NCBI GenBank assembly: GCA_020346285.1
Contig: CP070780.1
Span: 1,113,021-1,177,020, forward strand
Direction: 5' to 3'
From: Candidatus Omnitrophota bacterium
Lineage (GTDB): Bacteria > Omnitrophota > Gorgyraeia > JABMRN01 > RBG-13-46-9
DNA: 64,000 nucleotides
This document shows, one piece after another, positions 18,195 through 61,234 of this stretch; position 1 is the first letter of the stretch; every line of letters starts with the position of its first letter. Both the position numbers and the translations under genes were made by a program. The notes below the pieces were generated by a model. It was not told the origin of the DNA. It did not search any database and saw only the letters and a list, made by a program, of their open reading frames with translations.

Positions 18195-19271
18195 ATGCTG
18201 AAAAAAGATATTTTAATTAACGAAGGCGCGTCCATAAAGGATGCCTTGAAGAAATTAGATAAGAGTGCTGAGAAGGTATTACTGGTAGTAGATGAGAAAA
18301 GACACCTGTTGGGAACGATGACAGACGGAGATGTCAGGCGCTGTATTTTAACCGGTAAACATCTGGGAGATGGCATAGGCGAAGTCTATCACAAAAAGCC
18401 CATTCATATAAAGAAAAAAGATTTTTCACAAGAAGTAGTGAAAAAGATAATCGTTGGAAAGAGAATAGCGCTCGTGCCGATAGTAGATGAGGGTAATAAG
18501 ATAATAGATTTCGTAACAAGAGATGAGTTATTGTTAGAAGGAAAGATAGAGCCGTTAATTACAGACAAGTTAGATATACCAGTTGTTATCATGGCAGGAG
18601 GAGAGGGCACGAGATTGGACCCCTTCACCAGGATTCTCCCAAAGCCATTAATTCCTATAGATGATAAGCCCATCGTTGAGATAGTTATAGAAGAATTTAA
18701 AAGACAGGGCCTCAGCAAGTATTATTTAACATTAAACCATAAAAGCGGAATGATAGAGGCATATTTTGATGGCATAGACAAAGACTATGAGATAAAATTT
18801 ATAAGGGAAAACACCTTTTTGGGAACCGCCGGCAGCCTAAGGCTTTTAGAGAAAGAGATCGGCAGCATATTCCTTGTTTCTAATTGTGACGTTATTGTTA
18901 AAACAGATTTTGGGGAGGCATTAAATTTTCATAAAGAACAGCGCGCACTATTAACAATTCTCTCTCCCATCCAGCACTACAAGATTCCTTATGGGGTTGT
19001 AGAATTTAAACAAGGCGGAGAGGTTAAAACTATCATTGAAAAACCAGAGTATACCTTTACCGTCAATGCAGGGATTTACGTGCTGAGTAAAGAATCACTG
19101 CAATTTATGCCGGAAAGGTCACGCTTTGATATGACTGATCTGATAAGGGCCTTGATCGAACATGATAAAAAGGTTGTTATGTATCCGGTAAATGAATGTG
19201 ATTATATAGATATCGGGCAATGGGATAAATATCAGAAAACTGTCAGCAGTTTAAAAAGTCGTATGAGATGA
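18195..19271 (+). CDS. CBS-pair + sugar-phosphate nucleotidyltransferase (PtmE-like)
   Basis: The N-terminus has tandem CBS motifs (ILINEGASIKDALKKLDKSAEKVLLVVDEKRHLLGTMTDGDVRR). The C-terminal NTP-transferase domain begins PVVIMAGGEGTRLDPFTRILPKPLIPIDDKPIVE. The same architecture is known from Campylobacter PtmE of the legionaminic acid pathway. Confidence 0.7.
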   Translation: MLKKDILINEGASIKDALKKLDKSAEKVLLVVDEKRHLLGTMTDGDVRRCILTGKHLGDGIGEVYHKKPIHIKKKDFSQEVVKKIIVGKRIALVPIVDEGNKIIDFVTRDELLLEGKIEPLITDKLDIPVVIMAGGEGTRLDPFTRILPKPLIPIDDKPIVEIVIEEFKRQGLSKYYLTLNHKSGMIEAYFDGIDKDYEIKFIRENTFLGTAGSLRLLEKEIGSIFLVSNCDVIVKTDFGEALNFHKEQRALLTILSPIQHYKIPYGVVEFKQGGEVKTIIEKPEYTFTVNAGIYVLSKESLQFMPERSRFDMTDLIRALIEHDKKVVMYPVNECDYIDIGQWDKYQKTVSSLKSRMR

Positions 19272-19276
19272 TATAG

Positions 19277-19363
19277 AGGGTAAGGCATGAGTTTGATATA
19301 AGAATGTTTGCGGATACCTCAAAATATATAACAGGCCACAATCTTGTTGTAGATGGTGGTTGA
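19277..19363 (+). pseudogene. relic of the C-terminus of a short-chain dehydrogenase (SDR) gene
   Basis: The intergenic frame reads ...MFADTSKYITGHNLVVDGG* and ends at TGA 19361-19363. This is the canonical SDR C-terminal motif (YITGq.l.VDGG), with no upstream body. Confidence 0.5.
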
Positions 19364-21150
19364 TGCAGTATATGAATCTGACTAAAAATAAAATGATTAT
19401 AGCAGTTACAAACTTAAATCTATTTGCAGCTATTAAATTGCTGACTAAAAATAGCGGTTATACCGTTTTGTATTACGAAAGATGTATCCCCGATTTTTTA
19501 TATCATCTATTAGAAAAAAGGCATCACATCAGAGAGTGCAGCAAAAGAAATAACCCCGAATATCTGAAAAATGTAGAAAATGAAAAAGAAACATTTCACC
19601 TGTCATCTAATATAGCAGGCCATGATGACTTGGCAAGTTTCATGGAAGAGATAAGCGATATCTTTTGTATTAAAAAATCACATATTAAATCCACCATGAT
19701 TAAACATTTTGTCAAATTGATAAGAGACGATATAACCCTGATGGGACTGGTAAAAAATAAATATAAGGCTAATGAAAAGGCTGAATATTGGGTGAAAAAT
19801 TACGACATTTTTACCCGACTCTCTAATTTAAACGATAATTTTATTAAAGTAAGTCAACTAAGATTATTTGATATAGCGTATGCGTGTTACATATCTATTT
19901 GGCCTATCCACATTTTCCTGTTTTTTGTTAACGGTATATTTAAAAAACGTAAGAAGCAAAATATAAAAATCGTATTCCAGCAATCATACAAGAAACGTTT
20001 CGGGCATAATCCGGAATTCGAGGCTTTTTTTAGATATTTTAAGACAAGAAACGATGTGGCTTACCATTGTTTTAAAAAGAGCGATGGAATATATCAGGCC
20101 GTGGAATCCTCCGGCAAGCCGGCTTTTACTACTCGAGATTTAAGATTGCCATTATCGGAAGGTTTATTATTAGGTTCTCTTTTATTTAGATTAGTTTTAC
20201 TTTTCCCTAAATATAATCCCCCCCAGAAGACAACGTTTTGGAGGATACTCCTTTGTATTTTCAGGGAGTATGCAGTAACAAAAAGTATATTACTGGAATT
20301 TTCACCCAAATATTTCATTCGCATACGCCAGGAGCTACACGAAAACCACCCCGTAACAACAGGGGTATGCGAACTTCTCGAATGCAGCCACATTGGTTAT
20401 GAACATGGTCCGCCTGTTTATTTTGTCGCAGATTATGCATTAACGGATTTTCATTATTTAGGTGTAATGGGTAAATCATCTATGACTGACATTTATGAAA
20501 ATTGCAAATCGGATATCAAGTGGTCCGTCCTTGGCCCGATAACCGCAGATATATGTTATGACATGCCTGTCCCGAGACGCGACTTTAAAACCATTACTTT
20601 AATAGCAGATTATTATCTTTTGCCCTGGGGAATTTTTCCTTATGAAAGTTATTTCAACGAAGTATTTTTCCCGCTTATAGATTTTATGAAAAATATAAAG
20701 AACGTGAAATTAGTATATAGAATCAAAGCCGTTAAAAAAGAGGGCAAAGCGGCATATGTAAAAAATTTATGCAAACGGCATAATATAAAGTGTGATATTG
20801 AATATTCAGCATCCGGGAAGGATATCTCCGGTTTTTCCTCATATACACTAAGAAAATCTGATTTGGTTGTTGTTCGCGGTACTTCTACAATTGCCTTTGA
20901 GTCTCTTTCACTTGGGAAAAAAGTCATTGTTTTCTGTAACAATCTAATGAAACACCCGCTGGAATCCTTTGCTCCGAAGTTAGCTGTAAGAAGCGGTGAG
21001 GAATTCAACAAAACAATATCCTGGTTATGGGGTGTACCATATCCTGAATATATCAAAAGTATAGAACATATCATCAGGCAGACTTGCAAGAAAGCAAACG
21101 GGAAAATGGTTAAGGAATTTTTTGAGGATTTTGTAGGAATAGATAAATGA
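19363..21150 (+). CDS. large hypothetical protein, TagF-like C-terminal domain (putative surface-carbohydrate transferase); start uncertain
   Basis: About 590 aa. The C-terminal SDLVVVRGTSTIAFESLSLGKKVIVF...HP has the same pattern as the ORFs at 13291 and 51158. Several candidate starts exist (TTG 19360, ATG 19363, 19372, 19393). Confidence 0.35.
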   Translation: MQYMNLTKNKMIIAVTNLNLFAAIKLLTKNSGYTVLYYERCIPDFLYHLLEKRHHIRECSKRNNPEYLKNVENEKETFHLSSNIAGHDDLASFMEEISDIFCIKKSHIKSTMIKHFVKLIRDDITLMGLVKNKYKANEKAEYWVKNYDIFTRLSNLNDNFIKVSQLRLFDIAYACYISIWPIHIFLFFVNGIFKKRKKQNIKIVFQQSYKKRFGHNPEFEAFFRYFKTRNDVAYHCFKKSDGIYQAVESSGKPAFTTRDLRLPLSEGLLLGSLLFRLVLLFPKYNPPQKTTFWRILLCIFREYAVTKSILLEFSPKYFIRIRQELHENHPVTTGVCELLECSHIGYEHGPPVYFVADYALTDFHYLGVMGKSSMTDIYENCKSDIKWSVLGPITADICYDMPVPRRDFKTITLIADYYLLPWGIFPYESYFNEVFFPLIDFMKNIKNVKLVYRIKAVKKEGKAAYVKNLCKRHNIKCDIEYSASGKDISGFSSYTLRKSDLVVVRGTSTIAFESLSLGKKVIVFCNNLMKHPLESFAPKLAVRSGEEFNKTISWLWGVPYPEYIKSIEHIIRQTCKKANGKMVKEFFEDFVGIDK

Positions 21151-21160
21151 GGAAATAAGG

Positions 21161-22549
21161 ATGAGAGTTTTGCTGGTTGCGTATGACAACGCTTCCTATA
21201 CACATTGGTTTCCGCAAGGGTTGGCATATATTGCTGCGGTTCTCCTAAAGGAAGGGCACGATGTAAGAATTTATAATCAGGATAAATTTCATTACCCGGA
21301 CAGCCACCTTACGGCGTATTTGGACAAAAACAGATTTGACATTGTTGGCGTAAGCGTAATAGCGGGGTATTATCAATATAGAAAATTACTGAAAATTTCT
21401 GATGCAATAAATCAATCTAAAAATCGTCCGTTTTATATCCTAGGAGGCCATGGCCCTTCGCCCGAACCCGATTTTTTTATTAAAAGAAGCCTGGCCGATG
21501 CGGTTATTATGGGCGAAGGCGAAAATACGATCATTGATTTAATAGAAACCATAGGTGCAAAAAGGCGGCTTGCGGATGTTAAGGGAATAGCATTTCGCGA
21601 TGGAGAAAAAGTGATTATTAATGAAAAACAACCCCTGATCGAGAATATAGATAGCATACCACCTCCCGCTTATGATTTGTTCCCGATGCATTATTATGGG
21701 CTAAGAAGAGCGCCTCACGCTACAAAATTTGATTTTGTAATTGATGTTATATCAGGCAGAGGCTGCAAGTTTAAATGTACTTTTTGCTATCGCATGGACG
21801 AGGGCTTTAGACCGCGAAGTTCTGAAGCCATTATAGATGAAATTAAATTTCTGAAAGATAAATATGGCATTACCTATGTCACTTTTGCCGATGAGTTATT
21901 GATGTCGTCGGTTGAAAGGACAGAGGCCTTGTGCAAAAGTTTTATCAAAGCCGGATTAAATATTAAATGGAGTTGCAACGGGAGGCTAAATTATGCCAAA
22001 TCAGACGTTTTAAAACTTATGAAACAAGCAGGGTGCATGTTTATTAATTATGGCGTTGAGGCAATGGATGACCAGGTTCTTAAGAATATGAAGAAAGCAT
22101 TAACCGTCAAACAGATTATTGAAGGCGTTGAAGCTACATTAAAGGTGGGGGTAAGCCCCGGTTTAAACATTATTTTTGGAAATATCGGCGATAATAAGGA
22201 AACCTTGAATAAGGGGGTTGAATTTTTATTAAAATATGACGACGGGGCACAACTACGCACTATTCGACCGGTAACTCCATATCCCGGTTGCCCACTTTAT
22301 TATTCTGCTATAGAAAAGGGGCTTCTTAAGGATTGTGAAGATTTTTATGAGAACAAACACACAAATTCGGATTTAGTAGCTGTTAATTTTACAAACTTGG
22401 ACGACGAGGAGTTTCATAAGTGTCTATTAAAGGCTAATACCAAATTAATCGAGAATTATTTCAGAAAAAAATCAAGAGTTATTATTAAACAGGCTAAAAA
22501 ACTTTATCTTGAAAAAGATACTTCTTTTCGAGGTTTTCGTCAGCTCTAA
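21161..22549 (+). CDS. B12-binding (class B) radical SAM protein
   Basis: The N-terminal domain has FYILGGHGPSPEP (GG.H). The radical SAM motif is SGRGCKFKCTFCY. Confidence 0.8.
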   Translation: MRVLLVAYDNASYTHWFPQGLAYIAAVLLKEGHDVRIYNQDKFHYPDSHLTAYLDKNRFDIVGVSVIAGYYQYRKLLKISDAINQSKNRPFYILGGHGPSPEPDFFIKRSLADAVIMGEGENTIIDLIETIGAKRRLADVKGIAFRDGEKVIINEKQPLIENIDSIPPPAYDLFPMHYYGLRRAPHATKFDFVIDVISGRGCKFKCTFCYRMDEGFRPRSSEAIIDEIKFLKDKYGITYVTFADELLMSSVERTEALCKSFIKAGLNIKWSCNGRLNYAKSDVLKLMKQAGCMFINYGVEAMDDQVLKNMKKALTVKQIIEGVEATLKVGVSPGLNIIFGNIGDNKETLNKGVEFLLKYDDGAQLRTIRPVTPYPGCPLYYSAIEKGLLKDCEDFYENKHTNSDLVAVNFTNLDDEEFHKCLLKANTKLIENYFRKKSRVIIKQAKKLYLEKDTSFRGFRQL

Positions 22550-22590
22550 AAAGCAGAGATTTTTAATTGAAAAATTGGAGGGAAAAGTAT

Positions 22591-23562
22591 ATGGAACTCA
22601 AAGAAGCTGTTAAAAACAGAGTTGCTTTAGGTAAAAGGCCAAGATTGATTGAAAATGTATTGCTAATTGAGGGAATTGCCAGGGCAGGGAAATTTCTGCT
22701 TGCGAATTGCCTCTGTGCCATAAATGATGTAGAACATACCTGCTCCAACGGCCTTTTAGACAATATTCCTTTTATGGTAAAATTCAAACTGCTCACGCCA
22801 GAGGCAGCCGAAGCCCTTATTCAGAACATAATAGATAACTCGGGGTACGATATCATGATAGGGAGAAATCTCAATTTTCGATACGATGACAAGAGCTGTA
22901 TTTATAACTCCCCAAGGCTAAAAGAATATCTGGACAGGAGCCTAAACTCTGACCGAGATGTTATTGTAGAACAGATTAAAAATAAAAGGCGTTATTTTAT
23001 GCATATTGTCCACCAGGGTTTTCCGAATATCGAAATATTCCTTCGGATGTATTCTAAGATTAAGGTCATTAGAATTGAAAGACATCCCGTTGATTTAGTT
23101 TATTCATGGTTTCAGAGGGGGTTTGGCCGGCGATTGGGCCGAGATGCCCGATTATTTATTATACCGATCCAAGGAATAAAAGGGCCTATACCGTGGTTTG
23201 CACATGAATGGGCCGAGGATTATGAAAATTCATCCGAGATGGATAGAGTAATCAGATTCCTTTACTATATAAATGAAAAAAGCAAGGAAGCATATGTTAA
23301 TCTAAACATGGAAGATAAAAAAAAGATACATACCGTGTCGTACGAGCGCTTACTTACAGAGACAGACGAAGAAATGAAAAAAATAAGCATTTTTCTGGAT
23401 AAAAAAATATTGCCAGGGATCGAGCTAGTCAAGGCGCGCGAAAGAATCCCGGCACCTAATCCTGCATTGGTAAGGAATAAAAAAATGAATTTTATTAAAA
23501 AACAGACTACACCGAAAATCTTTTCCGCACTTATGGCGATGGAAAATGGATACGAGAAATAG
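22591..23562 (+). CDS. sulfotransferase-family protein (P-loop, PAPS-dependent type)
   Basis: IEGIARAGKFLL resembles the 5'-PSB P-loop (PK.G(T/S)T.L). IRIERHPVDLVYSW resembles the 3'-PB motif (R(D/N)P.D...S.Y). I prefer the ATG at 22591 (GGAGGG RBS). Confidence 0.55.
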   Translation: MELKEAVKNRVALGKRPRLIENVLLIEGIARAGKFLLANCLCAINDVEHTCSNGLLDNIPFMVKFKLLTPEAAEALIQNIIDNSGYDIMIGRNLNFRYDDKSCIYNSPRLKEYLDRSLNSDRDVIVEQIKNKRRYFMHIVHQGFPNIEIFLRMYSKIKVIRIERHPVDLVYSWFQRGFGRRLGRDARLFIIPIQGIKGPIPWFAHEWAEDYENSSEMDRVIRFLYYINEKSKEAYVNLNMEDKKKIHTVSYERLLTETDEEMKKISIFLDKKILPGIELVKARERIPAPNPALVRNKKMNFIKKQTTPKIFSALMAMENGYEK

Positions 23563-25762
23563 AAAAAAAATAAAGATAATCACGACACTAGGACCATCGA
23601 CGAACACCGAGAAGGATTTAAGAAACATAAAGGACAAAGGCGTTGATTTTGTACGAATCAATATGTCCCACTCCAATCTCAACGATTTAAAATATTTCAT
23701 AGATATTTCAAAGAAGATAGACATACCTTTTATCCTGGATACAGAGGGCTCGCAAATAAGGGCAGTTCAACTTGGCAGGGAAAAAATCGAATTTAAGGAA
23801 GGGGATATAATAAAAATTTATAATCGAACCATAGCAGAAAACAGGGAAAAGATATGCCTACAGCCGGGGTCTATTGTAGGGCAGTTGAAGAAAGGAGATC
23901 TGATATTCGTTGATTTTAATACGTTGGTCCTTAGGGTATCAGATATTTCTATGATTACCGACGGCTATATTTCCGCGATAGTTGTTACCAACGGAATGCT
24001 CGGAAACAACAAATCTGCTGTTATTGTTTCGGGAGAACAAAAACACTTTGGATTGCCCGTTTTAACCGAAAAAGACAGAAAATCTATTCAATTGGCTTTG
24101 AAAGAAGGGATAGGGCATATTGCCGTTTCTTTTGTAAGAAGGGGGAGGGACCTTGATGAGGTAAGAAAAACGACAAATAACACAATGCGTATCATCGCAA
24201 AAATAGAATCAAAAGAATCTTTGGAAAATATAGATGAAATAATTGAAAAAACAGACGCACTTTTGATTGACAGAGGAGATCTTGGTAAAGAGATTCCGAT
24301 TGAAAGAATACCCTTTATCCAGAAGGCTGTATTAAAAAAAGCGCACGAAAGACAAAAGCCGGTATTTATCGCAACAAACCTTCTCGAATCTATGGTTGAG
24401 AAGAAAAAGCCTACAAGGGCGGAAGTCAATGATGTTATAAATACCATTTTGGACGGGGCAGATGGCTTGGTTTTATCAGCCGAAACCGCTATCGGAAAAC
24501 ACCCCATGGGATGCATCAATATACTGAACAGGCTTATTAAATATTCAGATTCCGCAAGAAATCTTAACTATGTTAGTCGTTTTTCCGATTTTAGCACTGT
24601 TTCATTAATAAAACCGCATGGAGGCAGATTAATCGAAAGATTCGCCGATAAATTACCCGGCGATTCAGATAAATTGGTAAAAATAAAACTATCCGAAGAA
24701 CAGCAAATGGATGTTGAGCAGATTGCTGTCGGGGCATTTAGCCCTTTGGAAGGCTTTATGTGCAGAAATGATTTTCAGGGTGTCCTCGACAATATGCGGC
24801 TTGTAAGCGGGGTTGTATGGCCGATTCCAATCGTGCTTGATATTTCAAAAGAAGAGGCGAAAAAGATTTCTATCGATAATGAGGTAGCCTTAATCGGTGA
24901 TAAAGACGAAATTATGGCCATCCTTCATGTAAGGGATAAATACGATTTTGACAAAAAAGAGATAATAAATAAGTTATACTGCACGGACGACAAGAGGCAT
25001 CCCGGTGTAAAAATGGCAATGAAAATGAAGCCGATCTTAGTGGGCGGCGAAATTGATTTGGTAAAGAGAAGAGAGTCCGAATACAAGGAATATGAGCTTA
25101 CCCCAAGGCAGGTGCGAAAACTGTTCGAAGATCGAAATTGGATGAAGATTGCCGGTTTTCATACAAGAAACGCAATACACAGGGTGCATGAATTTATACA
25201 ATTAAAGGCGTTGGAAAAAGCGCATTGCGATGGGCTATTTATTCACCCTGTTATTGGAAAAAAGAAACAAGGCGATTTTAATATCAAATACATAATAGAG
25301 GCTTATAAAAAAATGATGAAAGATTTTTATCCAAAAGATAGCGTTGTCTTCGCAACATTTTCCACCTTTTCGCGATACGCGGGGCCTAGAGAAGCTATAT
25401 TTACTGCCTTATGCAGAAAGAATTTTGGATGCAGCCATTTTATTGTAGGAAGGGACCATACGGGTGTCGCGAATTATTATCACCCAAAGGCATCCCAACA
25501 GATTTTTGACAGATTTCCCGATTTGGAAATAAAACCCATAAAATTTGATAAAGTGTTTTATTCGAATAAACTTAACAAATATATTCATGGAAGTGACATT
25601 TGTAAAGAGGGGGATTTAGGAGAAGTGCATATAAACGCGACACAGGCAAGAAAGATGTTACAGGCCCTTGAAATGCCACCGGATTGGTTTATGAGGCCCG
25701 AAATAGCTTTAATAATTTTAAACGGACTAAAGAACAAGGAGGAAGTGTTTGTCAAAGAGTAA
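23546..25762 (+). CDS. fusion protein: pyruvate-kinase-like N-terminal domain + full ATP sulfurylase (sulfate adenylyltransferase)
   Basis: The first approximately 330 aa match pyruvate kinase blocks (IKIITTLGPST..E.L....KGVDFVRINMSHS; IAKIESKESLENIDEI...DALLIDRGDLG.EIP.ERIP..QK....K......PVFIATNLLESMV..KKPTRAEVNDV.N.ILDGADGLVLSAETA.GKHP). The remaining approximately 400 aa match ATP sulfurylase: the PUA-like segment HGGRLIER...LSEEQ..DVEQIAVGAFSPLEGFM, the HxxH motif GFHTRNAIHRVHE, and VGRDHTGV (GRDHAG). Confidence 0.8.
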   Translation: MDTRNRKKIKIITTLGPSTNTEKDLRNIKDKGVDFVRINMSHSNLNDLKYFIDISKKIDIPFILDTEGSQIRAVQLGREKIEFKEGDIIKIYNRTIAENREKICLQPGSIVGQLKKGDLIFVDFNTLVLRVSDISMITDGYISAIVVTNGMLGNNKSAVIVSGEQKHFGLPVLTEKDRKSIQLALKEGIGHIAVSFVRRGRDLDEVRKTTNNTMRIIAKIESKESLENIDEIIEKTDALLIDRGDLGKEIPIERIPFIQKAVLKKAHERQKPVFIATNLLESMVEKKKPTRAEVNDVINTILDGADGLVLSAETAIGKHPMGCINILNRLIKYSDSARNLNYVSRFSDFSTVSLIKPHGGRLIERFADKLPGDSDKLVKIKLSEEQQMDVEQIAVGAFSPLEGFMCRNDFQGVLDNMRLVSGVVWPIPIVLDISKEEAKKISIDNEVALIGDKDEIMAILHVRDKYDFDKKEIINKLYCTDDKRHPGVKMAMKMKPILVGGEIDLVKRRESEYKEYELTPRQVRKLFEDRNWMKIAGFHTRNAIHRVHEFIQLKALEKAHCDGLFIHPVIGKKKQGDFNIKYIIEAYKKMMKDFYPKDSVVFATFSTFSRYAGPREAIFTALCRKNFGCSHFIVGRDHTGVANYYHPKASQQIFDRFPDLEIKPIKFDKVFYSNKLNKYIHGSDICKEGDLGEVHINATQARKMLQALEMPPDWFMRPEIALIILNGLKNKEEVFVKE

Positions 25763-25779
25763 TAAAAAAATCGAGGGAC

Positions 25780-27519: not shown

Positions 27520-27542
27520 TTGAGTAAAAAATAGGCTTTGAT
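27507..27542 (+). repeat. short tandem duplication (AAATAGGCTTTGAT x2, 22-nt period) spanning the stop codon and next start
   Basis: Copy 1 is at 27507-27520 and contains the ALS-like TGA. Copy 2 is at 27529-27542 and places TGA immediately before the ATG at 27543. Confidence 0.4.
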
Positions 27543-29059: not shown

Positions 29060-29072
29060 GAGGGGGTTTAAT

Positions 29073-48018: not shown

Positions 48019-48022
48019 ACTG

Positions 48023-48763: not shown

Positions 48764-48786
48764 CTTTAAAGACTGGAGGAACAAAA

Positions 48787-49665
48787 ATGAAGATAATAGT
48801 ATTCGGAGGTTCGGGATTTTTGGGCAGCCACGTTGCCGATGTACTTTCAGAAAGAGGCCATGATGTTACTATATTTGATTTAAAGCCGTCCTCGCATTTA
48901 AAAGGCAATCAAGAAATAGTAATCGGGGATATCTTGGATAAAAAAGCTGTGGAAGACATGGTAAAAGCAAAAGATTATGTCTATAATTTTGCAGGTATCG
49001 CGGATATTGACATAGCAAAGATTAATCCTACCGAAACAATCAGGCAGAATATACTGGGTAATTCCATAATCCTTGAGGCCTGCCACAAGCAGAGAATCAA
49101 GCGAATTCTCTATGCCTCTTCCGTATATGTCTATAGCAATTCCGGCTCTTTTTACCGTACCAGCAAACAGGCCTGCGAACTTCTCATAGAAGACTACCAG
49201 AAAGCTTATGGGCTCAATTTCACTGTAATGCGTTACGGCTCGCTTTATGGCCCACGCGCCGACGAAAAAAACTGGGTATACTGCATATTGAAGGATGCGC
49301 TTACGAAGGGTAAGATAACAAGAAAAGGTGATGGAGAGGAAATCAGGGAGTATATCCATGTCCATGACGCAGCCAGAATAAGCGCGGACCTTCTGGATGA
49401 GCGGTACGTTAACGAGTTCGCCATTATATCGGGAAATCAGACGATTAAGATAAAGGATCTTCTAGTGATGATTAAAGAAATAATGAATAATAAAATCGAA
49501 ATCGAATATGTTCCTGCAGGATATGAGGAGCATTACGAGGTTACGCCGTATTCATTCAACCCGAGAATCGCGAAAAAAATAATTAGTAATTCATACCTCG
49601 ATCTTGGCCAGGGAATCCTCGACATCATAGAGCGAATTTATAAGGAAACCCCGCAATGCGCATAA
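48787..49665 (+). CDS. NAD-dependent epimerase/dehydratase (extended SDR)
   Basis: MKIIVFGGSGFLGSHVADVLSERGHDVTIFDL; YRTSKQACE (YxxxK). Confidence 0.8.
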   Translation: MKIIVFGGSGFLGSHVADVLSERGHDVTIFDLKPSSHLKGNQEIVIGDILDKKAVEDMVKAKDYVYNFAGIADIDIAKINPTETIRQNILGNSIILEACHKQRIKRILYASSVYVYSNSGSFYRTSKQACELLIEDYQKAYGLNFTVMRYGSLYGPRADEKNWVYCILKDALTKGKITRKGDGEEIREYIHVHDAARISADLLDERYVNEFAIISGNQTIKIKDLLVMIKEIMNNKIEIEYVPAGYEEHYEVTPYSFNPRIAKKIISNSYLDLGQGILDIIERIYKETPQCA

Positions 49666-51158: not shown

Positions 51159-53128
51159 TGAAAAGCATACTCTTTGTATTTGATTCCGGGATAAAAATGA
51201 AAAAGAACCTTAAATTACCGATTACATCCGGAGATTCGATATATTTGTTCCCCCTGACCTCAAAGATTTCCGTAACAGGGGCAATCTTGGAAAAAATCAA
51301 ATCTTTAAATGCCGTTTGCGTTACAATCCCCACCGGAAACGCGGTTAATTCCGCAGCCGAGAGAATAAGGGAAAGGTATATACGGTTTATAGCAGAAATC
51401 ACAAATCAGGTTAAATGCGACAACAGAAACTTAAGAGAAATTTTTGCCGTTGACCGGTACGCCAGCCTGTGGTGGCTTGGCCTTGTCTCCGAGAAGAATA
51501 CAATTAAATCCGACGTTTTTAATATTCTTGCGCAGCTCGACTCGATTGTCGAAACAATAAAAAATAAAAAGATTAGGAAAGTTATATTTGGTTGCGACAA
51601 CGAGAAATTAAAAAGTGTATTACGCGAATACGCCTCCAAAAATAGCATGGCATTTAAAGTTTTGCCTGTCAAGAAGGAAAAGGACATAAAAAAACGTTTT
51701 CGGAAGAGTCAAAGGTTATTTTACCTGCGCCATATTCTATCTTTGTTAAATACCGCATTAAAATTCTTTTTTAGGGCCAAAAAAATCAAGCGCAAACTCA
51801 AGGGCCTGCATTTACCTCCGCCCGGGCGAAGGGAATTTGCGACGATTACATATTATCCGAACATTGATGTTTCTCTTGCGCGTAAGGACATCTTTAAGAA
51901 CAGGTACTACAATAAATTACAGGAAGCGCTGGAAAATGAGAAGAAGAATATCGTATGGGTTGCCCTGTATGCAGAGAATAATTCCATATCGTTTAAGGAA
52001 TCCTTAGAGTACCTGGAACAGTTTGTAAAAGCAGGCTACGATATATTCTTTCTGGAAGAGTTTAACTCAATAAACGCAGGGATAAAAAACCTCCTCTATA
52101 TGCTTCGAAGCGGATTAAAGTTTATCAGGCTTGAGGAAAACATTCGCCGCGAACATGTTTTTGACGGTTACAATTTTTATTCACTCCTCAGAAATGACTG
52201 GTTTGCGTCATTTGTGGGAAGCGTGGGTTATTCGGGCCTTTTATTTTACAGCATGTTTAAGGCGTTTTTCAATAAAATTAAGGCTGAAAAATGCTTGTAT
52301 TTCTGCGAAATGCACGCATGGGAAAAGGCGCTCATATATGCAAGGGATGCCGTGGGTTCGAAAACGGCATTATTCGGTTACCAGCATAGTACGGTGTCGA
52401 AAATGCTTTTGAACTACTTTAATAAACCGGACGAAATAAGGAAACTTCAAAATTATATGTTTCCGCAACCGGACAGAATTATCTGTGACGGCCCACTTCC
52501 CCTGAGGTACCTGAAAGAGTCAGGCTGGCCCGAAGATAAACTTACGATTGCGGAGGCCGTACGTTATGACCATTTGAGAAAACAAATATGCAAGAGCCGG
52601 GAAAAAAAGAAAAATACGGTACTCCTGGCGCTTTCCATTAGCACAGAAGAAAGCAGCTCGATTCTTAACATTACTTACCAGGCGCTCAATCAGTTAAAAG
52701 AAATGGAAGTTTGGATTAGGCCGCATCCATTCGCATCCGTGGAAGATATATTTAAGACCTCCGGCATATCCAAAAAAAATCTTACGTTTTCAATCAGAAA
52801 CGAACCCATCGAAAAATTGTTATCCGAAGCCCATATAGTTATTGTCGGATTCTCGGGAGTTTCTGTAGAGGCCGTAGCGTTTGGTTGCAGGATTGTGACA
52901 GTTAATGTCCCCGAATGGATTAATATGTCGGCTTTAAAAGATATAAAGAGCGAGATTGTAAAAACCGCCGGTTCGCCCGCGGAATTACGGGAAATTGTTA
53001 TTAAAATCACCAAAGAGAAATACGACTTTCAAATGATTAAATCCGAATCCAAAAAGATAATAGACGCTTTCTTTTACCTAGATCGGAAATCTGACGTTCC
53101 GGAGCGGTTTATCGAATTACTCAAGTAA
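51158..53128 (+). CDS. large hypothetical protein, TagF-like C-terminal domain (putative surface-carbohydrate/CMP-sugar transferase)
   Basis: 656 aa. The C-terminus reads VWIRPHPFASVED...AHIVIVGFSGVSVEAVAFGCRIVTVNV, with an HP motif and the TagF/sialyltransferase-like segment. It is a paralogue of the ORFs at 13291 and 19363. Confidence 0.35.
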   Translation: MKSILFVFDSGIKMKKNLKLPITSGDSIYLFPLTSKISVTGAILEKIKSLNAVCVTIPTGNAVNSAAERIRERYIRFIAEITNQVKCDNRNLREIFAVDRYASLWWLGLVSEKNTIKSDVFNILAQLDSIVETIKNKKIRKVIFGCDNEKLKSVLREYASKNSMAFKVLPVKKEKDIKKRFRKSQRLFYLRHILSLLNTALKFFFRAKKIKRKLKGLHLPPPGRREFATITYYPNIDVSLARKDIFKNRYYNKLQEALENEKKNIVWVALYAENNSISFKESLEYLEQFVKAGYDIFFLEEFNSINAGIKNLLYMLRSGLKFIRLEENIRREHVFDGYNFYSLLRNDWFASFVGSVGYSGLLFYSMFKAFFNKIKAEKCLYFCEMHAWEKALIYARDAVGSKTALFGYQHSTVSKMLLNYFNKPDEIRKLQNYMFPQPDRIICDGPLPLRYLKESGWPEDKLTIAEAVRYDHLRKQICKSREKKKNTVLLALSISTEESSSILNITYQALNQLKEMEVWIRPHPFASVEDIFKTSGISKKNLTFSIRNEPIEKLLSEAHIVIVGFSGVSVEAVAFGCRIVTVNVPEWINMSALKDIKSEIVKTAGSPAELREIVIKITKEKYDFQMIKSESKKIIDAFFYLDRKSDVPERFIELLK

Positions 53129-53145
53129 AAAGGAGCATTACCAGG

Positions 53146-56397: not shown

Positions 56398-56421
56398 AGC
56401 CATAAAGGATTTACTAAAGAA

Positions 56422-57423
56422 ATGAATGGTCAGTTTTTTTGGTTAAATTGTTCTCAGAAGGATATCTGGAAAAAGTGGCTCTTAAAACTACCGCATGAGA
56501 AAAGAGACATTTATTATGAGCCGGACTATGTCGGGCTCTATGCAGAAGGCACGAGGAGCAGTGCGGACTGTTATATATATGCAAGAAAAGATAATATTTA
56601 TATTTATCCTTTTATAGTGCGCCCTATTCCTCAAATTGTCGGATATTTCGATATCTCCACCTCCTACGGATACGGTGGGCCTATCTTTAATACCGAAGAT
56701 CCTGTTTTTTTGAATCAAGCGTATCAATGTTTTTACCAGGAGGCTTTAAGACGAAACATAATAGCCGAAATAGTTAAGTTCCACCCTTTATTATGTAATC
56801 ATCCGCCGCTTGCAAATATTTTCAAAGGTAATATTATGAAAATGTGTTCTACTGTTTATGTGGATATAAATGTCGATGAAGGCTGCAGATGGAGAAATAT
56901 ATATACCCATGCAAATAGGAAAAATATAAATAAAGCTAAACGAAATAATATTGAGGTTAAGATCGATCAGAGCGAAGAAGCTTGGCAGGCTTTTAAATTT
57001 CTGTATGAGGCTACTCTGAGCGTAAATAAAGCCGATAAATTTTACTTTTTTTCACCTAAATATTTTGAAGGTATACAAGAACATCTTGCCGATAATTATC
57101 TCTTAGTTTCATGCGCAATTGAGGGAAAGATAATATCAGTGATGCTGGTGCTTCTTGGCACAGTTTATGCCCATTGCCACTTAATCGGCACCCAGAGGGA
57201 GCTTATGACTATGGGGGTTAATAATTTACTTCATCATGAACTTATTTTATGGTGTAAAAAGAATGGATATAAAGAGCTTCATATTGGCGGAGGGCGAAGC
57301 GACAGCGACGATGATTCGCTGCTCAGGTTTAAGAAGAATTTTTCAGATAAGACTTCTGCTTTATATGTAGGAGAATCTGTTTTGAATTACGAAATATACA
57401 ATAAGTTATACAGGAAACGATAG
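56422..57423 (+). CDS. FemAB-like / GNAT-fold acyl- or aminoacyl-transferase family protein
   Basis: 333 aa with a two-lobed architecture. The N-terminal lobe has YGYGGPIF, and the C-terminal lobe has a GNAT-like core (LVSCAIEGKIISVMLVLLGTVYAHCHLIGT..). The assignment is moderate. Confidence 0.45.
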   Translation: MNGQFFWLNCSQKDIWKKWLLKLPHEKRDIYYEPDYVGLYAEGTRSSADCYIYARKDNIYIYPFIVRPIPQIVGYFDISTSYGYGGPIFNTEDPVFLNQAYQCFYQEALRRNIIAEIVKFHPLLCNHPPLANIFKGNIMKMCSTVYVDINVDEGCRWRNIYTHANRKNINKAKRNNIEVKIDQSEEAWQAFKFLYEATLSVNKADKFYFFSPKYFEGIQEHLADNYLLVSCAIEGKIISVMLVLLGTVYAHCHLIGTQRELMTMGVNNLLHHELILWCKKNGYKELHIGGGRSDSDDDSLLRFKKNFSDKTSALYVGESVLNYEIYNKLYRKR

Positions 57424-57426
57424 GCC

Positions 57427-58359
57427 TTGATGATGATTGTTGAAAAAAAACAAAAAGATATAGAACGGTATGTTTTTAATTGGTCTTATTTTAACTCAGC
57501 AAGAGAAGGCTTTAGGCATATACTGGAAACCGAGGGACTAAACGGCAGGAAAATATTAGTTCCTCTTTACGTAGGATATAGTACGAAGGAAGGGTCTGGT
57601 GTTTTTGAACCGATAAGAGAAGCTAAAATGCAGTATGTTTTTTATAATCTGGATGGATGCCTCAATATTAATCTGGAAGATTTGAAGAGAAAAATTAAGG
57701 AAAATCAAAACAATGTTTTATTAATAATACACTATTTCGGATTTACAGATGGAAACCTAAAGAAAATAAAACAATATGCCAAGGAACACGGTATGATAAT
57801 TATTGAAGATTTTGCCCAGGCTTTTTTTACATTTTGGTTAAATCCCATAATTGATTTTGATTATGGTATATTCTCTATACATAAATTGTTTCCTGTAGAT
57901 TCAGGAGGCATGGTAATCGGTAGAAAAAAAATAAAGAGCAGCATTAATAACGGCAATATTAAGTATAATTTATTTAACTATAACATTAAAGAGATAATAC
58001 AAAGACGTATAGAAAATTATAAGTATATCTTGTACAGGATTAAAAAAATGACCGGCTTATATAAAATCACTGTTCTCAAAGAAAAATTGCAGGGGGTTGT
58101 CCCCCATAGTTTTCCGATTTTACTTCCCGACCGTAATATTAGGGATCAGTTGTATTTTCAAATGAATGAAGAAGGTTATGGAGTGATAAGCTTATATCAT
58201 ACATTAATAGATGAAATAGAGAGTCCTTTTACCATTGAGCATAAAATTTCAAGCAGGATATTAAACCTTCCTGTTCATCAGGATGCTGAAAAAGAGGACT
58301 TGGGCAATATGATCGATAGGATGTTTACGATTATCAATGACTATAATAAAAATGTATAG
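57427..58359 (+). CDS. DegT-like PLP-dependent enzyme (aminotransferase/dehydratase fold), N-terminally short
   Basis: GRKILVPLYVGYS...; LIIHYFGFTDGNLKKIKQYAKEHGMIIIEDFAQA...IDFDYGIFSIHKLFPVDSGGMVI follows the DegT core order, including the candidate PLP lysine (SIHK). It lacks the first approximately 50 aa of typical members. Confidence 0.45.
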   Translation: MMMIVEKKQKDIERYVFNWSYFNSAREGFRHILETEGLNGRKILVPLYVGYSTKEGSGVFEPIREAKMQYVFYNLDGCLNINLEDLKRKIKENQNNVLLIIHYFGFTDGNLKKIKQYAKEHGMIIIEDFAQAFFTFWLNPIIDFDYGIFSIHKLFPVDSGGMVIGRKKIKSSINNGNIKYNLFNYNIKEIIQRRIENYKYILYRIKKMTGLYKITVLKEKLQGVVPHSFPILLPDRNIRDQLYFQMNEEGYGVISLYHTLIDEIESPFTIEHKISSRILNLPVHQDAEKEDLGNMIDRMFTIINDYNKNV

Positions 58360-58380
58360 AGAGGGCTTAGAGAATAAAAT

Positions 58381-59061
58381 ATGACCTGGGATGATATCTG
58401 GGAAAAGGTATTTCAAGAGAATGAATGGGGCAGATATCCGGATGAGGGTCTTATCAGGTTTATCGCGAGAAATTTTTTCCAGAGAACAGATAGAGGAAAT
58501 ATCAATATATTGGAAGTTGGATGCGGTCCGGGACCTAATATCTGGTATCTTTCGAGAGAAGGCTTTGACGCTTATGGAATTGACGGCTCTACCAGTGCTA
58601 TTGAAAAGGCAAAAGGGAGGTTGGGCGAAGAGGGTTTAAAAGCATATCTAAGGATAGGGGATATAATAAGCTTACCATATAAAGATAATTTTTTTGACGC
58701 GGTTATAGATATTGAGTGTCTATACAGTAATTCGAGGGAGGATACAAAAACCATTCTCGGAGAGATAAAACGCGTATTAAAGAAAGACGGTTTATTCTAT
58801 AGCAGAACCCTTACGGATGAGATGTATTTAGGAAAAACGCAGACTAAAGTAGGTCATCTGGAGTACAAAAACATATCTGACGGGCCGATAGCTGGAAAAG
58901 GATTTGCAAGACTTATGGATAAGGTAGAAATATCGAATTTATATGGATCTTTTTTCGATATAATATCAGTTGATAAACTCGAATATACCAAAAATAACGG
59001 TTCAATGAAGATTAACGAGTGGATTATTGTTTGCCAAAATAGTCGAAAAAATAGAAAATGA
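58381..59061 (+). CDS. class I SAM-dependent methyltransferase
   Basis: Motif I is NILEVGCGPGPNIWYLSREGFDAYGIDGS. Motif II is FDAVIDIECL. Motif III is LKKDGLFY. Confidence 0.8.
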   Translation: MTWDDIWEKVFQENEWGRYPDEGLIRFIARNFFQRTDRGNINILEVGCGPGPNIWYLSREGFDAYGIDGSTSAIEKAKGRLGEEGLKAYLRIGDIISLPYKDNFFDAVIDIECLYSNSREDTKTILGEIKRVLKKDGLFYSRTLTDEMYLGKTQTKVGHLEYKNISDGPIAGKGFARLMDKVEISNLYGSFFDIISVDKLEYTKNNGSMKINEWIIVCQNSRKNRK

Positions 59062-60062
59062 ATAGAATTTTTATAATAGCGGAAGCGGGTATTAATCATA
59101 ACGGAAGCATTGTAAATGCAAAGAAAATGATAGATGGGGCGTCCGAGGCCGGCGTAGATGCAGTAAAATTTCAGACCTTTAAGGCGGAGAAGGAGATAAG
59201 TAAATATGCGCCCAAGGTTGAATACCAGAAAAGAACTACTGGCGCTGAAGAATCTCAGCTTGATATGGCTAAGAGATTTGAATTAAAGCAGAGCCAGTTT
59301 AAAGAGCTTTATAATTACTGTAAAGAGAAAAGAATTATTTTTTTATCCTCCCCATCCGATTTAGAGAGTATAGATTTTTTAATAGAACTTGAGCTCGATA
59401 CTTTAAAAATTCCTTCAGGAGAAATAACCAATCTGCCCTTTTTAAGGAAGATAGGAAGTTTAGGAAAGAAAGTTATAATGTCAACTGGGATGGCAGATTT
59501 AGAAGAGATAAAAGATGCTTTAGATATTTTAACCGAGGCAGGAACTCCCAAAAAAAATATAACTATTTTACATTGCAATACAGAGTATCCCACTTCTATG
59601 GAGGACGTAAATCTCTTAGCTATGCTTACAATTAGAGATACTTTTAAAGTAGAAGTTGGATATTCTGACCATACACTTGGAATAGAAGTTCCAATTGCAG
59701 CCGTGGCTTTGGGGGCAGCTATTATAGAAAAGCATTTTACACTCGATAGAAACATGGAAGGACCCGATCATAAAGCATCTTTAGAACTCGATGAACTAAA
59801 AGCTATGGTGAAGGCAATAAGAAATATAGAGAAAACTCTCGGCAATGGGATTAAAAAGCCTTCACCTTCAGAGATTAAAAACATAATACTAGTTCGTAAA
59901 AGCATAGTAGCAACAAGACCTATCAAAGAAGGAGAGATTTTTACAGTGAAAAACATTACAACTAAAAGACCGGCAACAGGAATAAGTCCAATGGAGTGGG
60001 ATAAACTACTTGGGACAACTGCCAAAAGAGATTTTAAGAAAGATGAGGTAGTGGAGTTATGA
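59058..60062 (+). CDS. NeuB-family nonulosonic acid synthase with C-terminal SAF domain (NeuB/LegI/PseI-like)
   Basis: IFIIAEAGINHNGSIVNAKKMIDGASEAGVDAVKFQTF; YSDHTLGIEVPIAAVALGAAIIEKHFTLDR; the C-terminal SAF domain begins KSIVATRPIKEGEIFTVKNITTKRP. Confidence 0.85.
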   Translation: MNRIFIIAEAGINHNGSIVNAKKMIDGASEAGVDAVKFQTFKAEKEISKYAPKVEYQKRTTGAEESQLDMAKRFELKQSQFKELYNYCKEKRIIFLSSPSDLESIDFLIELELDTLKIPSGEITNLPFLRKIGSLGKKVIMSTGMADLEEIKDALDILTEAGTPKKNITILHCNTEYPTSMEDVNLLAMLTIRDTFKVEVGYSDHTLGIEVPIAAVALGAAIIEKHFTLDRNMEGPDHKASLELDELKAMVKAIRNIEKTLGNGIKKPSPSEIKNIILVRKSIVATRPIKEGEIFTVKNITTKRPATGISPMEWDKLLGTTAKRDFKKDEVVEL

Positions 60063-61234
60063 AAAGAAAGGTTTGTATTGTTACAAGCTCAAGAGCAGAA
60101 TATGGTCTTTTAAGACCATTACTTGAAGAAATCGCAAATGATAAAAATTTAACTTTACAACTAATAGTTACCGGGATGCATTTATCACCTGAATTTGGAT
60201 TAACTTATAGAGAAATAGAAAAAGATGGTTTTGCCGTTGATGAAAAAATAGAAATTTTATTAAGTTCGGATACCCCCGCCAGTATTTCAAAATCTATGGG
60301 TCTGGCAATGATAAGTTTTTCCGAAGCTTATGGAAGGCTGAAATCAGATATTATTGTTGTACTCGGTGATAGATTCGAATTCCTTAGTGCGGTTGCAGCA
60401 GCTCTTATAAGCAGGATTCCTGTTGCCCATATTGCTGGTGGCGAAGTTACCGAGGCTGCTTTTGACGATTCTATCCGCCATTCTATAACCAAAATGAGTC
60501 ATTTGCATTTTACTATTATAGAAGATTATAGAAAAAGAGTTATTCAATTAGGAGAAGATCCCCAAAGGGTTTTTAATGTAGGTGCACTGGGAATAGATAA
60601 TATAAAAAAATTAAAGCTCTTTTCTAGAGAAGCTTTGGAAAAGGAGTTAAATTTTAAATTCAATAAACACAATTTGTTAGTTACTTTTCATCCTGTGACA
60701 TTGGAAAATAATACTTCCCCGCAGCAGTTCAAAGATTTACTTAGTGCATTAGAAAACCTGGAGGATACATTTATCATTTTTACTAAAGCAAATGCGGATC
60801 CAGGGGGAAGAATAATTAATAAAATGATCGATACCTATGTATCAAAAAATTGTAGTAAATCTGCGGCCTTTACTTCCTTGGGACATTTAAAATATTTATC
60901 AATACTGCAATTTGTCGATGCTGTAGTCGGGAATTCATCAAGTGGGATTGTAGAAGCTCCTAGCTTTAAGATGGGTACTATCAACATTGGTGGCAGACAG
61001 AAGGGAAGAGTAGAGCCTAAAAGTATAATTGATTGCCAACCCACAAAAGAATCAATTATCAAAGCCTTTGAAAAATTGTATTCTAAGGAATTTCAGAGAA
61101 GTCTCAAGAAGGTTGTCAATCCTTACGGCGATGGTAATGCTGCAAAAAGAATTAAAAATATACTAAAAAACTATGACATCAATAATATCTTAAAAAAGCC
61201 CTTCTTTGATATAGATTTTGGGTATAGGAGATAG
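60059..61234 (+). CDS. hydrolysing UDP/GDP-N-acetylhexosamine 2-epimerase (NeuC/LegG family)
   Basis: KVCIVTSSRAEYGLLRPLLEEI; VVLGDRFEFLSAVAAALISRIPVAHIAGGEVTEAAFDDSIRHSITKMSHLHF is the conserved NeuC core. Confidence 0.85.
   Translation: MKRKVCIVTSSRAEYGLLRPLLEEIANDKNLTLQLIVTGMHLSPEFGLTYREIEKDGFAVDEKIEILLSSDTPASISKSMGLAMISFSEAYGRLKSDIIVVLGDRFEFLSAVAAALISRIPVAHIAGGEVTEAAFDDSIRHSITKMSHLHFTIIEDYRKRVIQLGEDPQRVFNVGALGIDNIKKLKLFSREALEKELNFKFNKHNLLVTFHPVTLENNTSPQQFKDLLSALENLEDTFIIFTKANADPGGRIINKMIDTYVSKNCSKSAAFTSLGHLKYLSILQFVDAVVGNSSSGIVEAPSFKMGTINIGGRQKGRVEPKSIIDCQPTKESIIKAFEKLYSKEFQRSLKKVVNPYGDGNAAKRIKNILKNYDINNILKKPFFDIDFGYRR

Follow-up and report, generated by a model that had tools for sequence, protein, structure and literature searches.

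A surface-glycan locus with two NeuB-family genes

The DNA analyzed here (the window) is a 64-kb stretch of contig CP070780.1 from a metagenome-assembled genome (MAG) of Candidatus Omnitrophota, and it carries a surface-glycan locus of about 58 kb that includes genes for the synthesis of nonulosonic acids (NulOs). As decorations of the bacterial surface, these acids influence how cells interact with hosts, phages, and predators; to our knowledge, what is known of them comes almost wholly from pathogens. Nearly the whole window is taken up by a single co-directional gene array on the + strand (positions 5726–63316), with a GC content of 34–44% and a GC skew that is uniformly positive along the array. 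All 52 + strand open reading frames (ORFs) of at least 100 aa in the array were scanned with Pfam together with nine flanking ORFs (61 ORFs), and the key ORFs only were compared with the NCBIfam curated models and their cut-offs. Genes are named below by their first position.

A tblastn search of the whole 64-kb window detected exactly two NeuB genes (59058 and 10366) and exactly two cytidylyltransferase genes of the CTP_transf_3 family (47272 and 9014), with no third gene of either kind. The NeuB paralogues share 36% identity and the CTP_transf_3 paralogues 34%. A preliminary description of the region had named four ORFs (18195, 47272, 59058, and 60059) as a second nonulosonate module of legionaminic/neuraminic type, dispersed across the locus. 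All four ORFs are real and lie where they were placed, and the domain E-values of the genes named there are far past chance.

Predicted legionaminic acid genes in two blocks

The predicted genes for legionaminic acid (Leg) synthesis occupy two blocks, 16006–19271 and 56422–61234, which are 37 kb apart. Their members, including two pyridoxal phosphate (PLP) proteins and an S-adenosylmethionine (SAM)-dependent enzyme, are as follows.

16006–17004, + strand: LegB-type NAD-dependent NDP-GlcNAc 4,6-dehydratase (TIGR04180, 471.9 bits over the full model; curated cut-off 475)
16997–18130, + strand: LegC-type PLP aminotransferase (TIGR04181, 431.3 bits; cut-off 420; PseC model only 278 bits)
18195–19271, + strand: PtmE-like CBS-domain sugar-1-phosphate nucleotidyltransferase, 358 aa (CBS, E = 8e-11; NTP_transferase, E = 2.9e-35)
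56422–57423, + strand: FemAB/GNAT-fold (Acetyltransf_6) acyltransferase (Pfam Acetyltransf_6 and FemAB matches)
57427–58359, + strand: short DegT-like PLP protein, 310 aa (weak DegT_DnrJ_EryC1 match, 56.5 bits)
58381–59061, + strand: SAM-dependent methyltransferase between the DegT-like gene and LegI (Methyltransf_11/25/31 matches)
59058–60062, + strand: LegI-type nonulosonate synthase (NeuB + SAF), 334 aa (NeuB, 331 bits; TIGR03569, 506.3 bits; cut-off 399.65)
60059–61234, + strand: LegG/NeuC-type hydrolysing NDP-sugar 2-epimerase, 391 aa (Epimerase_2, 309 bits; TIGR03568, 498.5 bits; cut-off 235.9)

The curated models bear out the second nonulosonate route that had been proposed from the SAF-containing synthase 59058 and the hydrolysing epimerase 60059. 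Both proteins score well above the cut-offs of TIGR03569 and TIGR03568, respectively, while 59058 reaches 289 bits on the PseI model, under its cut-off of 340, and 60059 only 84 bits on the model of the non-hydrolysing WecB. The start of LegG overlaps the stop of LegI, and all catalytic positions of 59058 that were checked in an alignment are intact (E25, K53, K129, E134, H215, E234, H236, D247, and R314 in the numbering of Neisseria meningitidis NeuB, NmNeuB). In the other block, the PtmE-like gene 18195 is immediately preceded by LegB and LegC. Neither had been noted in the preliminary description, nor had 56422 and 57427, which also belong to the Leg module. LegB is 64% identical to the LegB-position gene of a canonical cluster (locus L006), and the PtmE-like protein is 47% identical to the PtmE-position gene of the same cluster.

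On a metagenome contig from a relative (Ga0117905_1000224, locus L005), genes for LegC, a FemAB/Acetyltransf_6 protein, a 304-aa DegT-like protein, LegI, and LegG are consecutive. The identities of the window orthologues to these five proteins are 68, 65, 69, 74, and 49%, respectively. Since the orthologues are contiguous in L005 and 37 kb apart in the window, the description of the module as dispersed was correct. The DegT-like protein 57427 keeps the position of the PLP lysine when aligned with other DegT paralogues; its L005 counterpart lies directly upstream of LegI, and it is a conserved companion of that gene. The methyltransferase 58381 has no counterpart at the same position in L005, and its membership of the Leg module is uncertain. 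A further gene of the window has a counterpart next to the Leg genes of the relative.

21161–22549, + strand: B12-binding radical SAM enzyme (B12-binding and Radical_SAM domains)

This enzyme is 71% identical to the product of the L005 gene at 13784–15166, which lies downstream of LegG there. It is conserved alongside the Leg genes in the relative and may have a tailoring role.

The synthase 59058 is probably of the LegI type

The GDP-dependent Leg pathway, with the enzymes PtmE, LegB, LegC, LegH, LegG, LegI, and LegF, was worked out in Campylobacter jejuni and confirmed in Tannerella forsythia (PMC5378307). We collected loci around close homologues of 59058, taking one genome per species, and obtained 80 loci from many phyla in which the synthase is 60–71% identical to 59058. 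These loci were searched by tblastn with the window proteins and the proteins of a canonical cluster. The neighbors of the synthase in the 49 loci of at least 18 kb were as follows.

LegG: 48 of 49 LegI-type loci
LegC-like: 44 of 49 LegI-type loci
PtmE-like: 42 of 49 LegI-type loci
CTP_transf_3 homologue: 41 of 49 LegI-type loci
LegH/PglD-like: 37 of 49 LegI-type loci
LegB-like: 32 of 49 LegI-type loci

The same gene set makes up the CMP-Leg pathway of C. jejuni and T. forsythia (PMC5378307). Among all 80 loci, a LegG homologue was found in 72, and in 61 the LegI-type gene had a homologue of the PtmE-like gene at a distance of no more than 10 kb. The latter count agrees with the earlier naming of 18195 as a PtmE-like enzyme, as does its domain architecture, and 18195 is a predicted maker of GDP-GlcN(Ac).

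In a neighbor-joining tree, 59058 fell inside the clade of synthases with a LegI gene context (bootstrap 81), apart from NmNeuB, C. jejuni PseI (CjPseI), and Bacillus subtilis SpsE (BsSpsE), and it did not group with the Neu-like synthases of three metagenome loci (L099, L115, and L116) that are described below. The second NeuB of the window, 10366, fell in a separate SAF-less clade with a bootstrap of 100. The two copies thus belong to separate clades and differ in active-site residues and domains; the preliminary description had named placement of both in a single clade, with near-identical specificity determinants, as the outcome that would speak against two routes. The neuraminic reading is disfavored because 59058 clusters away from NmNeuB and sits in LegB/LegC/PtmE contexts, and it is a probable LegI-type synthase. 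Of the original label "legionaminic/neuraminic," the first half is supported by LegB, LegC, and the gene context, and the second half is disfavored. Two other lines of evidence were set aside. Sequence searches against the Protein Data Bank (PDB) gave scores for CjPseI (197 bits), BsSpsE (192 bits), and NmNeuB (169 bits) that were too close to discriminate. As for database names, 59058 is called N-acetylneuraminate synthase by NCBI and its close homologues legionaminate synthase by JGI, and the JGI product names were judged weak evidence for LegI, some short NeuB homologues being named likewise.

A FemAB-like acyltransferase as the probable replacement for LegH

No LegH of the LbH/PglD type was detected in the window: none of the 61 ORFs matched Hexapep or PglD_N in Pfam, and the LegH of L006 had no tblastn match in the window. 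The preliminary description had not remarked on this gap. The FemAB-like gene was present in four of the genome loci, and none of these four had a LegH-like gene, whereas such a gene was found in 58 of the 80 loci overall. The probability that all four would fall by chance among the 22 LegH-negative loci is approximately 0.005 (hypergeometric, calculated by hand). Furthermore, the FemAB-like gene ends just before LegI in three of its four genome loci, and its L005 counterpart lies between LegC and LegI. Position and mutual exclusivity together suggest that 56422 most likely acylates the 4-amino group in place of LegH. The protein is also weakly similar to FemX, and this similarity would allow the transfer of an aminoacyl rather than an acetyl group, which we mention as speculation.

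An independent module around a SAF-less NeuB

The first nonulosonate module of the locus spans 6300–14973. It is independent of the Leg genes, is built around a NeuB without a SAF domain, and has a canonical-type cytidylyltransferase of its own.

9014–9655, + strand: canonical-type CMP-nonulosonate synthetase ("CMP1"; CTP_transf_3, 87.5 bits)
10366–11241, + strand: SAF-less "short" NeuB paralogue (NeuB domain only)

The short NeuB 10366 scores under the cut-off on both the NeuB and PseI models. Its family is conserved at 65–75% across phyla and keeps the metal ligands H215 and H236 as well as E25, K53, K129, E234, and D247; at the position of E134 it has T, L, S, or C, and R314 is gone along with the SAF domain. 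In NmNeuB, the source of these residue roles, E134 is one of three proposed catalytic glutamates (PMC8208679). The substrate or mechanism of the short NeuB may differ from those of the known nonulosonate synthases, as judged from these residues. Its conserved neighbors are a DegT aminotransferase, a short-chain dehydrogenase/reductase (SDR), a PIG-L protein, a WbqC protein, a PseG-like protein, and a LIC12162 transferase. The PIG-L deacetylase (8349–9017) and the WbqC protein (9646–10365) are fixed in all five short-NeuB loci (the window, L007, L008, L173, and L174), which suggests that an N-acetyl group is removed and replaced.

The cytidylyltransferase 9014 is the only canonical-type synthetase in the window and a fixed member of this first module. 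It keeps Q104, T106, S107, R165, Y179, and D211 (N. meningitidis numbering) and shares 43% identity with the LegF-position gene of L006. The gene order PIG-L, CTP_transf_3, radical SAM-SPASM (rSAM-SPASM), WbqC, and short NeuB recurs in L173 and L174; in L174, a Nitrospirae locus, the gene that corresponds to 9014 in this order shares 73% identity with it. We therefore rejected the idea that 9014 is a LegF inserted from outside the module. Its top match to PseF was likewise not taken to make it Pse-type, because the canonical CTP_transf_3 proteins of L005, L006, and L003 score higher (143–165 bits). Beside the short-NeuB module of L174 (Nitrospirae JADFXI010000003.1), positions 4183–5904 encode a 573-aa fusion of a CTP_transf_3 domain with a radical SAM/SPASM enzyme. 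This fusion was considered as a Rosetta-stone link for 47272 and rejected, since the fused cytidylyltransferase domain is not of the 47272 type.

The cytidylyltransferase 47272 belongs to a separate cassette

The other CTP_transf_3 gene of the window had been counted as a second CMP-NulO synthetase and paired with the Leg module. It lies in a cassette of six genes.

47272–48018, + strand: divergent CTP_transf_3 cytidylyltransferase ("CMP2"), 248 aa (CTP_transf_3, 53.7 bits, E = 3.2e-14)
46280–53128, + strand: the CMP2 cassette, comprising rSAM-SPASM 46280, CMP2 47272, adh_short SDR 48023, epimerase-type SDR 48787, B12-radical SAM (B12-rSAM) 49656, and a TIGR04326-like 656-aa protein 51158

On the PseF model, 47272 scores 72.9 bits, compared with 143–165 for the canonical proteins of L005, L006, and L003. 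Its family is conserved at about 70% across Omnitrophota, Nitrospirae, and Planctomycetes and forms a deep clade of its own in a neighbor-joining tree (bootstrap 100), outside the known Neu, Leg, and Pse synthetases. The protein keeps R12, K21, R71, R165, D209, and D211, including residues for CTP and Mg. The sugar pocket is changed (Q104M, T106N, S82G, Y179S, and F192G, with G/L at Phe192/193), and these substitutions are invariant in the seven aligned family members, the window copy included; at positions 179 and 192 the alignment is less certain, and the structural model has a pLDDT below 50 in that region. In the N. meningitidis enzyme, Ser82, Gln104, Thr106, Tyr179, and Phe192/193 bind the sugar, and replacing Q104 with L, E, or N lowers kcat/Km 200- to 47,000-fold (PMC2901514). 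The window copy also has V at the P-loop position K16 (GRKGSVGFPGKN), where all six other aligned family members have K.

The AlphaFold model of 47272 has a pLDDT of 74.8, with residues 138–180 poorly predicted. In Foldseek searches, its best matches were CMP-NulO synthetases (6ifd, with a TM score of 0.70, then 9ftb, 9t4z, the murine 1qwj, and 1eyr), followed by KdsB. The nearest PDB sequences are also CMP-NulO synthetases, with the similarity confined to the N-terminal half (69.7 bits). The sequence and the model together indicate a predicted CMP-ulosonate-synthetase-like fold with a rebuilt sugar pocket and not a standard CMP-NulO synthetase. Of the two CMP-NulO synthetases that had been claimed for the locus, 9014 is thus of canonical type, while 47272, with its own clade, altered pocket, and own cassette, is not an ordinary one.

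We fetched 80 metagenome loci centred on the 47272 family and counted neighbors in those that span at least 8 kb (35 loci).

rSAM-SPASM homologue of 46280: 23 of 35 47272-type loci
B12-radical SAM: 24 of 35 47272-type loci
Epimerase-type SDR: 20 of 35 47272-type loci
adh_short SDR: 15 of 35 47272-type loci
LegI-type synthase at 50% identity or more, within 10 kb: 0 of 35 47272-type loci
NeuB-family gene of another type (Neu-, Pse-, or SpsE-like in the tree): 9 of 35 47272-type loci
Second, non-overlapping CTP_transf_3 upstream: 14 of 35 47272-type loci

An independent clustering of ORFs, which included loci L001 and L003, gave similar counts and added a 2-hydroxyacid dehydrogenase in 20 loci and a HAD hydrolase in 13. 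The same cassette is present in L001, L003, and L172. Conversely, the 80 LegI-centred genome loci hold no 47272-type gene in their 10-kb flanks (the best match reaches 34% identity). A single contig carries both L005 and L001; on it, a canonical 232-aa synthetase (165.7 bits to 6ifd, over its full length) follows LegI-LegG and the 47272-type cassette lies 20 kb downstream. On another contig, a 47272-type cassette follows a short-NeuB module, and its cytidylyltransferase is the only CTP_transf_3 in 35 kb. The 47272-type genes of L099, L115, and L116 directly follow a Neu5Ac-type NeuB (near NmNeuB in the tree) and a NeuC-like epimerase, with a canonical CTP_transf_3 ahead of this pair in L099. 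Because the cassette is found with nonulosonate loci of several types, it is an independent unit and not the dedicated partner of LegI, and the pairing of 47272 with the Leg module, found within 10 kb in none of the 35 loci, is not supported.

These results make it more likely that 47272 activates a different or heavily modified acid than that it is a plain CMP-Leg synthetase. As a tentative proposal, which we hold at somewhat less than an even chance, 47272 founds an unrecognized CMP-ulosonate-synthetase-like clade that is widespread in Omnitrophota, Nitrospirota, and Planctomycetota. Together with the radical SAM/SPASM enzyme, the two SDRs, and the B12-radical SAM enzyme (elsewhere also the 2-hydroxyacid dehydrogenase and the HAD phosphatase), it would form a novel acidic sugar tailored by radical SAM chemistry and activate it. 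This sugar would be the third CMP-activated donor of the locus, with its own TIGR04326-type transferase, and 47272 would not simply be the Leg activator.

Proposed pathway and alternative explanations

The reading that we consider probable is that the window encodes a GDP-type legionaminic acid pathway that is broken into two blocks and in which LegH has been replaced, with 9014 belonging to the independent first module and 47272 to a separate cassette. What is shown is the protein family of each enzyme; substrates, nucleotide, and acyl group are predictions. In the first block, the PtmE-like enzyme 18195 would make GDP-GlcN(Ac), LegB (16006) would dehydrate this product at C4/C6, and LegC (16997) would add the 4-amino group. 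In the second block, the FemAB/GNAT-fold protein 56422 would acylate the 4-amine, standing in for LegH; LegG (60059) would then remove GDP and epimerize C2, and LegI (59058) would condense the resulting 6-deoxy-mannose derivative with phosphoenolpyruvate (PEP) to a 5,7-diacylamido legionaminic-type acid. Candidates for the CMP activation of this acid are 9014, 47272, or a gene outside the window. The synthesis of two different ulosonic acids is plausible because the two NeuB paralogues are 36% identical and fall in separate clades, and their active sites and domains differ as well.

Several observations weigh against this pathway or against the separation of its parts. LegB scores 3 bits below the curated cut-off of TIGR04180. 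The gene upstream of LegC in L005 encodes a GalE-like SDR instead of one of the LegB type, so the module of the relative is not identical to that of the window. The exchange of LegH for a FemAB-like protein is suggested only by position and mutual exclusivity. The trees are neighbor-joining trees of few sequences and contain no characterized LegI (C. jejuni Cj1327, Legionella pneumophila); gene context, together with hidden Markov models (HMMs) that do not separate Leg from Neu, is thus what supports the Leg assignment. BsSpsE, which is tied to a Leg pathway, falls outside the clade of 59058, so "LegI" is not a single clade. No gene of the window could be assigned as a dedicated CMP-Leg synthetase. 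Finally, 47272-type genes lie downstream of NeuB/NeuC-type pairs in 9 of the 35 loci, and in L001 the 47272 orthologue directly follows a PtmE-like gene; 47272 may therefore have a role in activating a Leg derivative.

An alternative, in line with the earlier pairing, is that 47272 is the CMP-legionaminate synthetase of this organism, with a pocket adapted to an N7-modified or radical-SAM-tailored Leg, and that 9014 serves the short-NeuB module only. The predicted fold of 47272, its nearest PDB sequences, which are all CMP-NulO synthetases, and its retained CTP and Mg residues would suit such a role, as would the PtmE-like gene in L001, the synthases upstream in 9 of 35 loci (with a NeuC-type epimerase too in several), the fixation of 9014 in the first module (L173 and L174), and the lack of a third CTP_transf_3 gene in the window. 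LegF and PseF are, moreover, poorly conserved, perhaps owing to specificity for modified substrates (PMC5378307). However, Q104 is M across the 47272 family, at a position where substitutions are so costly to the N. meningitidis enzyme (PMC2901514), and the upstream synthases, where present, are a mixture of Neu-, Pse-, and SpsE-like types. A second CTP_transf_3 is already at hand in 14 of the 35 loci and on the L005/L001 contig, where it is canonical. The two surveys also agree from both sides, with a LegI-type synthase within 10 kb in 0 of 35 47272-centred loci and a 47272-type gene in 0 of 80 LegI-centred genome loci. We consider this explanation rather unlikely.

The remaining explanations concern the synthases themselves. 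If 59058 and 60059 were a true Neu5Ac pair working from UDP-GlcNAc, then LegB, LegC, and the PtmE-like enzyme would supply the glycan with a further, unrelated sugar, GDP-linked and of the bacillosamine type. TIGR03569 and TIGR03568 are indeed named for NeuB and NeuC and do not separate Neu from Leg, NCBI gives 59058 the name of a neuraminate synthase, and the two gene blocks are far apart. This explanation is nevertheless very improbable: 59058 clusters away from both NmNeuB and the Neu-like synthases found beside 47272-type genes, the genome loci of 59058-type synthases hold LegC-, LegB-, LegH-, and PtmE-like genes, the LegC orthologue is contiguous with LegI/LegG in L005, and LegB and LegC, which are present here, are not needed for a Neu5Ac route. 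The JGI name legionaminate synthase points the same way, weakly, for the reason given above. Another improbable alternative is that the organism makes one true nonulosonate only, namely Leg, and that the short NeuB 10366 is not an ordinary nine-carbon-acid synthase, in which case two NulOs would be an overstatement. The absence of the SAF domain and R314 from the short family, the non-acidic residue at the proposed catalytic position E134 (PMC8208679), the scores under both cut-offs, and the uncharacterized status of SAF-less NeuB proteins speak for it. Against it stand the metal ligands and other active-site residues that 10366 retains, the conservation of its family across phyla, and its neighbors: a dehydratase-type SDR, an aminotransferase, a PseG-like hydrolase, a cytidylyltransferase, and a LIC12162 transferase follow the logic of a Pse-like route. 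The two-block Leg pathway beside an independent short-NeuB module remains the reading we prefer.

Comparison with known nonulosonate systems

Like the pathway of C. jejuni and T. forsythia, the window has a PtmE-like enzyme, LegB- and LegC-family proteins, a hydrolysing 2-epimerase, and a NeuB + SAF synthase, and the same gene set surrounds close homologues of 59058 in dozens of genomes. Unlike that pathway, the window has no LbH-type LegH, in whose place FemAB/GNAT-fold and short DegT-like proteins are found, and no dedicated canonical LegF was found in it; furthermore, 37 kb separate the two blocks of its genes, and radical SAM enzymes are interleaved. The preliminary description had drawn an analogy with the glycosylation of flagellin in Campylobacter. 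This analogy finds no support in the window, since no Maf or flagellin family was detected among the 61 ORFs in the Pfam scan and the transferase families are of Leptospira O-antigen types.

The Leptospira nonulosonate/O-antigen loci (PMC3438082), like the window, combine multiple NeuB and cytidylyltransferase paralogues within a single surface-glycan locus. The best PDB match of the short NeuB 10366 is the short NeuB structure 6NCS, the protein 13276 belongs to the LIC12162 family, and 51158 resembles TIGR04326 (LIC13510). In contrast, the phylum is a different one, 6NCS lies outside the short clade in the tree, and radical SAM, thiamine diphosphate (ThDP/TPP)-enzyme, and sulfation genes are far denser in the window. 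With the pseudaminic acid (Pse) pathway (PseB, C, H, G, I, and F), the first module (6300–12217) shares a PseG-like hydrolase, a DegT aminotransferase, an SDR, a NeuB-like synthase, and a cytidylyltransferase, but it scores under the cut-off on every Pse model. The second module differs from the Pse pathway in its PseI score (289 bits, below 340) and in having a 2-epimerizing LegG instead of PseG. Finally, 47272 has the predicted fold of the solved CMP-NulO synthetases (N. meningitidis 1EYR, Vibrio cholerae 6IFD, Aeromonas caviae PseF 9FTB, and Prymnesium parvum CMP-Kdn synthetase 9T4Z), from which it differs in its replaced sugar-binding positions, its separate clade, and its radical SAM/SPASM neighbor.

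Other genes of the locus

Ten radical SAM genes lie in the 64 kb, five of them B12-binding, four with SPASM, and one of another kind, which is unusually dense for a sugar locus.

1603–3039, − strand: radical SAM gene (Pfam)
12214, 15015, 21161, 37302, 38376, 41265, 46280, 49656, and 54952, + strand: radical SAM genes (Pfam; first positions)

At 23546–25762, a pyruvate-kinase barrel, a PUA_2 domain, and an ATP-sulfurylase are joined in one protein of 738 aa. A sulfotransferase gene (22567–23562) adjoins this fusion, and a second one (61256–62494) follows LegG; no APS kinase was seen among the window ORFs in the Pfam scan. The sulfurylase fusion and the two sulfotransferases suggest that the glycan is sulfated. 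The segment 25684–37300 encodes two ThDP (acetolactate-synthase-like) enzymes, an E1 alpha/beta pair, a split transketolase, a class I/II aminotransferase, and SDRs, and it may be the source of a carbon-chain extension or an unusual acyl group. An ABC exporter is also present in the locus.

Putative transferases from families first defined in Leptospira O-antigen regions are found at 13276 (LIC12162/TIGR04331), 51158 (TIGR04326-like), and 43285 (TIGR04372), as assigned with NCBIfam. Three putative transferases are large (565–656 aa): 13276–14973 of the LIC12162 family, 51158–53128, which is TIGR04326-like, and 19360–21150, which has no family match. Two of the three lie in or beside a cytidylyltransferase-containing cassette. 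Homology among them was considered and rejected, with no similarity detectable by BLASTP. A literature search on the LIC12162, TIGR04326, and TIGR04331 families yielded nothing useful, and a promoter/terminator scan of 61000–64000 gave the same counts as shuffled sequence.

Implications

Organisms with two nonulosonate routes are well known (Campylobacter and Leptospira), and strains of T. forsythia carry one or the other; the claim of two routes is therefore only moderately interesting in itself. What the locus adds is an uncultured Omnitrophota bacterium that has the standard enzymes of a GDP-type Leg pathway with the N-acetyltransferase probably exchanged for a FemAB-like acyltransferase. 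This exchange would point to an unusual substituent at N7 of the predicted acid, possibly an aminoacyl group. Furthermore, three conserved cassettes that a naive reading merges, namely the short-NeuB module, the Leg module, and the radical SAM cassette of 47272, can now be told apart. The most interesting loose end is the unassigned 47272 family, whose environmental homologues number in the thousands and for which no substrate is known. The separation of these cassettes corrects the bookkeeping of "one synthase, one cytidylyltransferase" by which the number of such sugars in an organism is commonly predicted.

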